Assembly (NCBI GenBank): GCA_014803525.1
Contig: JAAVBP010000004.1
Coordinates: 121,369-185,368 of the forward strand
Origin: a bacterium
GTDB lineage: Bacteria; Pseudomonadota; Alphaproteobacteria; Rs-D84
DNA length: 64,000 nt
Reading direction: 5' to 3'
Shown here in pieces: positions 41,540 to 43,804 of this stretch. The number at the start of each line of letters is the position of its first letter. The stretch's first letter is position 1. Both the position numbers and the translations under genes were made by a program. The notes beneath the pieces are model-generated. The model did not search any database, had not been told where the DNA came from, and saw only the letters and a program-made list of their open reading frames with translations.

Positions 41540-43804
41540 ATGGCAGAGAAGTTCAAGATTTTATCGGCCGGCGGATCGTCCAAGGGCCTGAATATTTTCA
41601 AATCCAGCGCGTATAAAGAGCACGAGCGTACGCCCCTGGCATCAATATTCTGGAGCATTCGTTGGGCAATCGGCATATGGTTAATATGCGCATTGGCATT
41701 CGCATTATCGTTCATTGCCGAACATTTCTGGCGATATGGATTTTCGCCCGCGTCATGGCGGTGGATGTGGCTGTATCTGGGGAACATGATATCGACACTG
41801 GGCCTGTCGGTGGTGGCGGAAATACCGGAATGGGTCGGGCGCAGCGTTATGCGCACAGACCTGGCGTGTATGGCGCCATTACTGCCGGTTGTTGCGTACT
41901 TTTTCCTGTCAGATTCCACATTGGTCAAAGAATTCAACCCGCACGGCAGTGATAAATTTGATGCCAAATCATCCAACAAAGCCGGCGCTGATGACATCAA
42001 AAAAATGGGCACAGATTTTAAAAACAAAGAAGGTCTGTTTGCCGGATTTATGATGGTGTTGGGCTGGTTTAAGTACAAGGGAAAAACAGTTCCACTGAAA
42101 TTTGATGAAACATTATCTGCACTGTTGGTGGCGCCCCCCGGAACCGGTAAAACCGCAGGTGTCGTTATTCCAACCATATTTGAATGCGACAATGTATCAA
42201 TGATTATAAACGACCCAAAGCCCGAATTAAACTGGAAAACATCCGGCTATCGCGCCAGCGTTGGCCCGGTATTTATCATGAACTGGGCGGGCCAGGACGA
42301 CCCCGACCGCGGCATATATTATCCGTCTTGGAACCCGTTGTCGCCGGAACACGTCCCATTTACCCAGGAACAGCGTGACCTGTATATAGATTCTATTTGT
42401 AACGTTCTGTGCCCGGATGCGGTTGGGTCATCGGCCGACCCGCACTGGACAATTGCGGGCCGCGGTGCACTGTCGGGTATGGTGCATTATATTGTATCCA
42501 AGGTAGAGCGTGCCAAGGCCGACGACTATTTCTATTCCCGAATTGCATCCGGCACATTTGATGCCGAAGATGCGGCGGTGCTTGGCGATTATTACCTGTC
42601 GATGATTCATGACCCGAATGCATATGCGGCGCACGCGATTCTGCAACGCGGCGAATTAAACGCCATGAACTATGTCCATATCGGTACATGGGATGGTATC
42701 CCCGACGCATGGCGTGGCAAAGAGGCATCACTGTCCATGATTCTGGATTGGTTAAACGCGGCACAGATAAAAATTGCCGAAGATCTGGAAAACCGCCGAC
42801 GCCAGGGTGACCAGATGGTTATGATGGCCGACCCCATGAAAGACCTGTTACAGGCCGCCGTGGACGAGGCACGCCGATACGCATATTCACACCGCGCAAT
42901 ACTGGAATTTACGCAATTGGCCAGTACCCCAGACAAGGAACGCGGATCAATATTTTCAACCGCACTGCAGGGTCTGGCGATATTCCGTAATGCGGCGGTG
43001 CGTAATCGTACCAGTCATTCGGACTTTCATTTTTCCGACCTGCGCGGGATGCGCGATCCGCGCGATGGCAAGATTAAGCCGATTTCGATATACCTGTCCA
43101 TTAACATGGTTGATGCCGAGGCATTGAATCCCATCACCGCAATCTTTATTGAATTAATGTCGTCGTATCTGTTGGTAAACACGCCTGACATGGTCAAAGA
43201 TGGGGTAAAAATGGGGCCATACCCGGTACTGTTTGTATTGGACGAAATGCCAAAAATGCAAAAGATGCAGGCCGTGATCCAGGGACCAGACCTTGGCCGT
43301 GGTCAGAAAATTTCATACCTGATTATCGGCCAGGACTTGCACCAGTTTGCGGAAAAATACGGCCAGGATGCCGCATCCACAATCATATCCACGACTGCTG
43401 CTAAAATCATCCTGCGCCAGAATGATCCCGACAGTGCAAAACGCTTTTCCGACATGATGGGATACAAGATGAAGGTCAAGGCCGACAAAGACGGCAAAGA
43501 ATCCACATCCGAAGAATTACTGTACACGCCGATGGATATCATGAAATTGCCGATTGGAAAACAGCTGGTTCTGATCCAGGGTCACTATAACCGCCCAATC
43601 GAATGCGACCAGCAATTATATTACAAGGCCGGAACACCGATTGAAAAATCAATGCTGGCAAAATATCAGATGGGCGAGGCACCCGCCCTGCCCGAATTCT
43701 TGGTTGCGTCGCACCATGCGGCAATGGGATATGACGGCGCGCCACGCGGCATATGGAACCCAAATACCAAGCAGTTAATGCCATTGCCGGTTATCAAAGC
43801 TTAA
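41540..43804 (+). CDS. Type IV secretion coupling protein (TraG/VirD4/DotL family)
   Basis: N-terminal TM helices; Walker A LVAPPGTGKTAGVVIPT; Walker B VLFVLDEMPKMQKM (compare xLDEF); 754 aa, DotL-sized; no other T4SS genes adjacent. Confidence 0.7.
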   Translation: MAEKFKILSAGGSSKGLNIFKSSAYKEHERTPLASIFWSIRWAIGIWLICALAFALSFIAEHFWRYGFSPASWRWMWLYLGNMISTLGLSVVAEIPEWVGRSVMRTDLACMAPLLPVVAYFFLSDSTLVKEFNPHGSDKFDAKSSNKAGADDIKKMGTDFKNKEGLFAGFMMVLGWFKYKGKTVPLKFDETLSALLVAPPGTGKTAGVVIPTIFECDNVSMIINDPKPELNWKTSGYRASVGPVFIMNWAGQDDPDRGIYYPSWNPLSPEHVPFTQEQRDLYIDSICNVLCPDAVGSSADPHWTIAGRGALSGMVHYIVSKVERAKADDYFYSRIASGTFDAEDAAVLGDYYLSMIHDPNAYAAHAILQRGELNAMNYVHIGTWDGIPDAWRGKEASLSMILDWLNAAQIKIAEDLENRRRQGDQMVMMADPMKDLLQAAVDEARRYAYSHRAILEFTQLASTPDKERGSIFSTALQGLAIFRNAAVRNRTSHSDFHFSDLRGMRDPRDGKIKPISIYLSINMVDAEALNPITAIFIELMSSYLLVNTPDMVKDGVKMGPYPVLFVLDEMPKMQKMQAVIQGPDLGRGQKISYLIIGQDLHQFAEKYGQDAASTIISTTAAKIILRQNDPDSAKRFSDMMGYKMKVKADKDGKESTSEELLYTPMDIMKLPIGKQLVLIQGHYNRPIECDQQLYYKAGTPIEKSMLAKYQMGEAPALPEFLVASHHAAMGYDGAPRGIWNPNTKQLMPLPVIKA

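Follow-up and report, generated by a model that had tools for sequence, protein, structure and literature searches.

The DNA analysed here, a 64,000-nucleotide stretch of contig JAAVBP010000004.1 referred to throughout as the window, comes from "Candidatus Enterousia", a lineage of gut alphaproteobacteria in the order Rs-D84. At 41540-43804 on the plus strand it carries a gene encoding a type IV coupling protein, and the designation T4CP is used below for this protein. With a probability of roughly 0.6, the T4CP is the VirD4-type coupling protein of a chromosomal, scattered type IVA secretion system that serves interaction with partner cells and not conjugation. The evidence consists of the intact coupling ATPase itself, its fixed chromosomal position and conservation across the lineage, its similarity to VirD4-type proteins, and a virB3-virB4 gene pair located 32.3 kb downstream of the T4CP stop codon on the same contig.

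Coupling protein gene and its product

The open reading frame (ORF) is uninterrupted from ATG to stop and encodes 754 amino acids (MBD5400465.1, on a 201,727-bp contig of a metagenome-assembled genome, MAG). The product scores above the cut-offs of three Pfam families, PF02534 T4SS-DNA_transf (171.3 bits, cut-off 20.1), PF12696 TraG-D_C (67 bits, cut-off 22) and PF10412 TrwB_AAD_bind (57.4 bits, cut-off 20.5). The PF02534 match is split into two stretches, with part of a helical insert uncovered, and the match to the nucleotide-binding domain (NBD) stops at residue 707 of 754 (profile position 456 of 468), leaving 47 residues. The gene and the parts of its product are as follows.

41540..43804, plus strand: VirD4-type T4CP, 754 aa, MBD5400465.1 (ORF, Pfam, profile, fold, orthologs)
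41630..41926, plus strand: N-terminal membrane anchor, aa ~31-129 (Kyte-Doolittle hydrophobic segments at aa 31-65 and 103-129)
42140..42154, plus strand: Walker A motif GTGKT, aa 201-205 (each residue 96-100 % conserved in 75 orthologs)
42365..43009, plus strand: helical insert or all-alpha domain region, aa ~276-490 (modelled by AlphaFold2 (AF2) as helices at aa 276-488, with a predicted local distance difference test score (pLDDT) of 75-90)
43226..43249, plus strand: Walker B motif VLFVLDEM, aa 563-570 (LDEM at 567-570)

The AF2 model of the whole T4CP is of moderate confidence (pLDDT 64) and places long helices at residues 27-66, 70-85 and 95-123 in the anchor region. Every residue of the Walker A and B motifs is at least 96 % conserved in the 75 orthologs, with D568, E569 and M570 of Walker B kept in 96-97 %, and conservation is high over the whole protein. 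The Walker A lysine K204 is invariant among 29 homologs with identities as low as 21 %, and the helical insert contains residues that are invariant in the family-wide alignment (K321, A325, A327, D329, Y330, Y352, Y378, G382, W384, G393, E443 and Y449). The T4CP is a genuine type IV secretion coupling ATPase, intact and equipped with a membrane anchor. An earlier interpretation of the same DNA made from its letters (the sequence-only reading) had described a 754-aa coupling protein of the TraG/VirD4 family with a transmembrane anchor and Walker A and B motifs, and this description is borne out by the Pfam score, the hydrophobic segments and the located motifs.

The chance that the gene encodes not a coupling protein but another P-loop translocase (FtsK/SpoIIIE or HerA), or is a decaying remnant, is negligible. 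HerA/FtsK-type ATPases were reached by Foldseek through the shared ASCE (additional strand, catalytic glutamate) fold alone, at E values above 1e-3 (about 5e-3 to 1e-1), whereas all of the top 38 PDB matches are coupling-protein structures, of Cagbeta and TrwB, with E values from 6e-13 to 2e-7. In addition, the Pfam families that score far above threshold are specific to coupling proteins, and the gene has an uninterrupted reading frame with conserved motifs. An FtsK/SpoIIIE/HerA or decayed-gene identity was refuted by the Pfam scores, the Foldseek ranking and the conserved motifs, and the grouping with FtsK/SpoIIIE that the sequence-only reading had named as the outcome that would speak against it was not seen in the fold ranking.

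Conservation and vertical inheritance

Enterousia is a member of the uncultured order Rs-D84 with genomes that are mostly <1 Mbp and lack the tricarboxylic acid cycle, respiratory chains and standard transporters, and an obligate symbiotic or parasitic life, in which metabolites are drawn from other cells, has been proposed for it (PMC12306168). A few of the MAGs containing the loci described here carry 'Rickettsiales' in their titles, yet the genus is placed in Rs-D84 (PMC12306168).

Among species-representative genomes (one genome per species), 209 stretches matched the T4CP. The best 80, on which the locus counts for species representatives given below rest, are 68-81 % identical and come from records titled as uncultured gut Alphaproteobacteria, with "Candidatus Enterousia" named in many of the titles; orthologs throughout Ca. 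Enterousia are 68-87 % identical. The gene rsmE adjoins the T4CP gene divergently in 79 of the 80 loci, followed by a pseudouridine synthase gene (79/80) and a tetratricopeptide repeat (TPR) gene (77/80), and at the sole locus without rsmE the contig ends 147 nt before the T4CP gene. The upstream features in the window are as follows.

39103-40122, minus strand: TPR protein (Pfam/NCBIfam)
40152-40853, minus strand: pseudouridine synthase, RsuA/RluB-type (Pfam/NCBIfam)
40850-41506, minus strand: rsmE (Pfam/NCBIfam)
39103..41506, minus strand: divergent block formed by the three genes above, which marks chromosomal synteny and is not a functional part of the system
41522..41530, plus strand: extended -10 promoter box TGATATAAT, ending 9 nt before the T4CP ATG (sequence)

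Directly 3' of the T4CP gene lie a 186-aa ORF without a predicted transmembrane segment and a polytopic 164-aa membrane ORF, followed further downstream by genes for a family 6 glycosyltransferase (GT6), xth and an acyl-CoA ligase. The flanks are thus as the sequence-only reading had claimed, with rRNA-modification genes (rsmE and the pseudouridine synthase) upstream and a membrane ORF downstream. The downstream side differs from species to species, and neither the 186-aa nor the 164-aa ORF is kept outside this one.

The T4CP is more conserved than the genes beside it. Relative to the proteins of the window, the median identity is 72 % for the T4CP against 62 % for rsmE, 59 % for the pseudouridine synthase and 67 % for the TPR protein; out of 74 loci, the T4CP value is the higher one in 74, 73 and 71, respectively. 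The divergence of the T4CP correlates with that of the neighbours (Spearman 0.69, p = 1e-11). The GC content at the locus is 0.50, like that of the flanks and unlike that of a low-GC island at about 5-20 kb of the window, and no integrase or compositional anomaly was found at the locus.

A promoter box of the form TGnTAnAAT is present at the equivalent site in 31 of 33 orthologous T4CP loci, within the spacer between the divergent rsmE and T4CP genes, which is 33 bp long in the window; no Shine-Dalgarno sequence was found upstream of the T4CP ATG. Because the conserved -10 box lies 9 nt before the ATG and a Shine-Dalgarno sequence is lacking, the T4CP gene probably forms a conserved, independent, monocistronic transcription unit with a leaderless or near-leaderless mRNA.

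Given the rsmE synteny, the conservation above that of the neighbours, the conserved motifs and the conserved promoter of its own, the T4CP gene is a vertically inherited, syntenic chromosomal core gene and not the cargo of a mobile element. The coupling protein of a plasmid or of an integrative and conjugative element (ICE) does not fit the fixed position, the tracked divergence, the normal GC content and the conserved promoter.

Two observations were made on related loci. The Enterousia-type block of TPR, pseudouridine synthase and rsmE genes beside a T4CP gene (69 % identical) is also present in OZ246409.1 (locus L065, 566742-588955), a record of 716,531 bp titled 'uncultured Muribaculaceae ... 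chromosome 1', which is probably a mislabelled complete Rs-D84 chromosome. In sister gut lineages (80 metagenome loci, T4CP 45-50 % identical) no VirB neighbours were found within 10 kb of the T4CP gene. In one of these loci (L113:8143-9976), genes for two paralogous membrane proteins of 163 and 428 aa without a Pfam match lie directly upstream of, and co-directional with, the T4CP gene; they are kept in 52 and 66 of the 80 loci, respectively, and are possibly T4CP partners, and no homolog of either was detected in Enterousia.

Assignment to the VirD4 type

The T4CP family is a divergent branch, since the single sequence had no match among PDB sequences by phmmer at E<=0.01 and all NCBIfam T4CP equivalog models scored far under their cut-offs (VirD4-like CD1115 122 bits, TraG and VirD4 about 87 bits). 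Assignment to a curated NCBIfam T4CP subfamily was rejected on the same scores.

A family profile built from 29 T4CP homologs of 21-69 % identity matched Cagbeta/Cag5 in the PDB with E = 2.3e-14, against 2.6e-4 for DotL and 3.7e-4 for TrwB. A Foldseek search with the AF2 model gave Cagbeta at 6e-13 and TrwB at about 4e-9, and DotL was not in the top 50. Cagbeta of Helicobacter pylori (Cag5, PDB 8DOL), a VirD4-type coupling protein serving a protein-effector type IV secretion system (T4SS), is therefore the closest solved structure both by profile and by fold. It is about 16 % identical to the T4CP, is encoded within the cag island and is under the control of CagZ, a partner for which the Enterousia T4CP has no evident counterpart.

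In a search of 72,556 plasmids, the best annotated relatives were found on the megaplasmids Sphingosinicella p1, an Erythrobacter aureus plasmid and Microvirga pMVF16-3. These VirD4 proteins of mating-pair formation type T (MPF-T, type IVA) are 30-33 % identical to the T4CP over 75-91 % of its length and have the same domain organisation. On the megaplasmids the coupling protein gene is the last gene of a contiguous virB2-B3-B4-...-B8-B9-B10-B11-virD4 operon with a MobA/MobL relaxase; the Enterousia gene, unlike these, is monocistronic, chromosomal and 32 kb from virB3-virB4, and no relaxase was found for it.

The T4CP is accordingly placed with the VirD4-type (type IVA) proteins and not with DotL: profile and fold are nearest to Cagbeta, a DotL-type C-terminal tail is missing, and the relatives lie in virB operons. 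The classification was made from the profile ranking, the fold ranking and the genomic context of the nearest relatives.

The sequence-only reading had instead pointed to a DotL-like protein and an I-type system. In its full form this alternative holds that the T4CP is a DotL/IcmO-like coupling protein of an I-type (Dot/Icm) type IVB secretion system encoded elsewhere, and it is very improbable. DotL (IcmO, PDB 6SZ9/7OVB) and TrbC of IncI plasmids belong to the same T4CP superfamily and are of similar overall length (754 aa for the T4CP, 783 aa for DotL), the family profile detects DotL, though weakly (E=2.6e-4), and an R64-like pilO-pilP-ATPase-T2SSF module is present inside the window. However, Cagbeta is better by ten orders of magnitude in the profile search and first by fold, and the "DotL-like" length is due to a longer N-terminal region and the helical insert. 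In DotL structures a long C-terminal extension past the NBD binds the adaptors IcmS/W, LvgA and DotN. Such an adaptor-binding tail of roughly 200 aa is missing from the T4CP, as the NBD match ends at residue 707 and 47 residues are left. The T4CP gene is adjoined by rsmE upstream and by the soluble 186-aa and membrane 164-aa ORFs downstream, not by dotM/dotN-like genes, and no Dot/Icm core genes were found in about 96 kb of the contig. The partner genes are virB3 and virB4, with the VirB4 product scoring 365 bits against TIGR00929 VirB4_CagE, and just 62 Escherichia plasmid records match the T4CP at E<=1e-5. The R64-like gene order of the pilus module, which had been taken as a pointer to an I-type system, says nothing about the type of T4SS.

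Partner genes on the same contig

The contig was followed past the right end of the window by stitching: locus L169 overlaps window positions 52564-64000 and locus L084 overlaps L169, with both overlaps 100 % identical. Two partner genes were located about 12 kb past the window's right end.

76,068-76,364 (extended window coordinates), plus strand: virB3 (stitched contigs)
76,365-78,782 (extended window coordinates), plus strand: virB4, MBD5400495.1, HDR61_01980 (stitched contigs)

The VirB4 protein MBD5400495.1 follows the T4CP by 30 protein accessions on the 201,727-bp contig and occurs in the same sequencing run, and its Walker A motif is intact. The sequence-only reading had called the T4CP far from any T4SS genes, which holds inside the window but not for the contig; its suggestion that the T4CP gene is separated from the other T4SS genes, which would lie elsewhere in the genome, agrees with the position of virB3 and virB4.

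The pair is co-inherited with the T4CP gene. In the closest species representative (L004), VirB3 (98 aa) and VirB4 (805 aa) are encoded 6 kb from the T4CP. Across the lineage, homologs of VirB4 equal the T4CP in spread and conservation (1,462 matches, the bulk at 78-81 % identity), and between genomes VirB4 is 78-83 % identical, close to the 84 % of YchF and above the 66-68 % of LpxC. T4CP and VirB4 matches have longest contigs of identical length in at least 5 further cases (418,380; 695,807; 344,892; 287,479; and 117,175 bp). A single VirB4 was seen per locus. The three best plasmid relatives of VirB4 (32-33 % identity) are from the same three megaplasmids as those of the T4CP, which argues that the T4CP and virB3-virB4 descend from one T4SS subtype whose genes are contiguous elsewhere.

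The virB3-virB4 locus is bounded by rpmJ and ychF/infB/nusA. The interval from the T4CP gene to virB3 contains the pilus module, lpxC, lpxK, a DUF374 gene, a 1155-aa ORF, MatE, an ABC-F protein gene, three unknown genes and rpmJ. Two more distant genomes have the gene order rpmJ / virB3-virB4-orf~205 ... lpxK-lpxC-x-pilO-pilP-ATPase-T2SSF. The three unknown genes beside virB3 (133, 259 and 308 aa) are missing from that order and were rejected as T4SS parts, being an insertion specific to this genome. The next gene after virB4 is orf207 (HDR61_01985), whose secreted product is restricted to the lineage and has an invariant HExxH motif; the AF2 model of this protein has a pLDDT of 90 and no convincing match to a solved structure. 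Pfam searches with permissive E-values gave nothing informative for the unknown ORFs around the T4CP and VirB4 genes.

The pilus-like module between the T4CP and virB3-virB4 has the gene order of R64 pilO-P-Q-R, and its presence in the window was correctly noted in the sequence-only reading. Its four genes are as follows.

60753-62027, minus strand: PilO (PF06864)
60101-60763, minus strand: PilP-like (NCBIfam PilP family TIGR03021, 31.3 bits against a cut-off of 34.65)
58453-60117, minus strand: T2SSE ATPase, GspE/PilB-like (PF00437)
57383-58456, minus strand: T2SSF platform protein (PF00482)
57383..62027, minus strand: type IVb-pilus-like module formed by the four genes above, with no functional link to the T4SS implied

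No secretin, pilin or prepilin peptidase gene is adjacent to the module. In other Enterousia genomes the module adjoins lpxC-lpxK and lies within 6-7 kb of virB3-virB4.

Conjugation or partner-cell interaction

The view that a coupling protein is diagnostic of conjugation capability is unlikely to hold for the T4CP, because it is encoded by a syntenic core gene with no relaxase nearby. More broadly, it is unlikely that the T4CP is a conjugative or DNA-handling coupling protein which, as is presumed for its nearest plasmid relatives, takes up a relaxase-DNA complex of ICE, plasmid or chromosomal origin so that DNA can be conjugated or released. Several observations do point in that direction: the virB operons of the closest annotated relatives come with genes for MobA/MobL relaxase, topoisomerase, primase and DnaB-like proteins, 868 of 1217 plasmid matches to the T4CP are on plasmids predicted to be conjugative, and the low-GC island of the window, with its serine recombinase and Rep-like gene, would in principle be open to mobilisation. 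These are opposed by the fixed chromosomal site beside rsmE in 79 of 80 species, with conservation above that of the neighbours and a divergence that tracks theirs, and by the lack of an integrase or compositional anomaly at the locus. Moreover, a MobA/MobL-like relaxase, the single MOB family probed, was found neither in the window nor in ~1.8 Mb of Enterousia loci nor in 1.1 Mb of sister-lineage loci, and no relaxase domain is present among the annotated window genes. The relaxase linkage and the patchy, mobile location of conjugative MPF-T plasmid and ICE systems are not seen for the Enterousia T4CP. A role towards partner cells is preferred over plasmid or ICE conjugation because the gene is fixed in <1 Mb genomes without respiration or most transporters and has no relaxase or mobile signature.

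Extent of the secretion system

Several results weigh against a type IVA system for partner-cell interaction. Probes for VirB2, VirB5, VirB6, VirB8, VirB9, VirB10 and VirB11 (tblastn with Erythrobacter VirB proteins, and hidden Markov models (HMMs) built from 3 sequences) found nothing except the pilus ATPase in the window and ~85 Enterousia loci (~1.8 Mb, partly redundant), and the HMM probes for the same proteins in about 96 kb of the contig recovered only this GspE/PilB-type ATPase. Extension of the contig to the left gave no T4SS genes. As the VirB probe searches of the window and about 85 loci recovered solely VirB3, VirB4 and the pilus ATPase, the T4SS components found in the loci covered are VirB3, VirB4 and VirD4 only, and a complete envelope-spanning channel is not demonstrated. 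Since the nearest annotated relatives are encoded in conjugation-like operons that include MobA/MobL relaxases, DNA transfer is the ancestral function of the T4CP, and a less probable present one. No substrate or effector of the T4SS was identified, and the AF2 model behind the fold ranking is only moderate. The sequence-only reading had proposed a search for C-terminal effector signals in orphan proteins such as orf687; this ORF has 12 K/R in its last 40 aa, which is compatible with a type IVA signal but not diagnostic.

The same pattern could reflect a minimised or hybrid machine composed of VirB3, VirB4, VirD4 and lineage-specific proteins (e.g. the secreted HExxH protein) without canonical VirB6/8/9/10/11, in which the outer membrane would be crossed in another way, for example via the neighbouring secretin-less type IVb-pilus-like module. 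This is regarded as improbable, and to our knowledge there is no precedent for a minimised VirB3-VirB4-VirD4 machine. It would account for the lack of VirB6/8/9/10/11 near either locus in about 85 Enterousia loci, for the position of the lineage-restricted HExxH protein, with its confident model and no solved-structure match, directly after virB3-virB4, and for the conservation of virB3-virB4 and pilO-pilP-ATPase-T2SSF as near-neighbours in three genomes. On the other hand, the VirB absence covers the flanks of two loci only, the probes have an identity of about 30 % and small VirB proteins easily escape detection, and proximity in a <1 Mb genome is weak evidence for a functional link. If Enterousia and its gut relatives have such a machine, it might be a contact-dependent conduit through which these bacteria with <1 Mb genomes exchange material with a partner cell.

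Proposed function and comparison with the rvh system

For the scattered type IVA system favoured here, a working model can be drawn by analogy with TrwB, VirD4, Cagbeta and RvhD4. The T4CP would form a hexamer in the inner membrane that docks on a VirB4-containing channel, would recognise substrates via its helical domain, and would use ATP to feed them into the channel energised by VirB4. Judged from the context, the system most likely delivers proteins or other cargo to partner cells, or mediates contact-dependent exchange with them, as part of an obligately partner-dependent lifestyle.

The rvh T4SS is a chromosomal type IVA system in the reduced genomes of Rickettsiales, in which RvhD4 binds effectors; it has been proposed to target host cells or other, competing microbes, and its hallmarks are duplicated RvhB4, B8 and B9, multicopy RvhB6 and the lack of VirB5 (PMC11077975). 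The Enterousia genes share with rvh the scattering of vir genes among housekeeping genes of a reduced alphaproteobacterial chromosome. They differ in that the host order is Rs-D84 and in that the T4CP gene stands alone and not beside virB8-virB11. The rvh system is the closest analogue in lifestyle and gene layout, and membership of rvh is not claimed for the Enterousia system.

Additional features of the window

A low-GC island (window ~4300-20300, GC 0.34-0.43 against about 0.47) contains a large serine recombinase gene (17485-19203) abutting tRNA-Tyr/tRNA-Gly (19036-19221), a C5 DNA methylase gene (7937-9715), a Rep_ORF2/G2P-like gene (10127-10702) and a 1207-aa BigA-like ORF (12686-16309). 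The island is probably an integrated mobile element and is apparently unrelated to the T4CP.

The GT6 gene downstream of the T4CP gene (44997-45872, minus strand) matches PF03414, and scores 227 bits against the NCBIfam Gltr_6 cut-off of 250; other species are without it at this position. The family is that of the ABO blood-group transferases, here found in a gut symbiont. A 592-aa ORF beside ftsQ (27261-29039, plus strand) combines an FtsA domain (aa 194-323) with a ribulose-phosphate 3-epimerase domain (aa 381-573), and may represent an unusual fusion or, alternatively, two genes read as a single ORF.

A non-coding repeat of about 210-240 nt, whose dispersed copies share 74-81 % identity, is present at window 34842-35078, with partial copies at 48958-49072 and 49215-49288. 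Further copies are at L084:13737-13976 and in loci L008, L013, L036, L037 and L076. The repeat contains TATAAT-like boxes, hairpins and a terminator-like stem with a T-run, and has no Rfam family match; an Rfam scan of the window gave tRNAs only. Two copies lie directly upstream of genes for small helix-turn-helix proteins and one lies just after the virB3-virB4 cluster. The repeat is a candidate small RNA, leader or repetitive extragenic palindromic (REP)-like element.

Biological significance

Ca. Enterousia and Rs-D84 are widespread in the gut of humans and livestock, and the mechanism of their proposed partner dependence is undescribed (PMC12306168). A T4SS goes unmentioned in the Enterousia genome paper (PMC12306168), the full-text literature on Enterousia, Rs-D84 and related terms yielded no T4SS description, and no prior description of a chromosomal, scattered, vertically inherited type IVA system was found for this lineage. 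For annotation, the case indicates that a 'stand-alone' coupling protein need not mean conjugation or a Dot/Icm system. The T4CP could serve as bait for substrates or effectors in an uncultured lineage, and the fixed, highly conserved, scattered VirD4 and VirB4 ATPases are a testable candidate for the interaction machinery of these bacteria, in parallel to the role of rvh in Rickettsiales.

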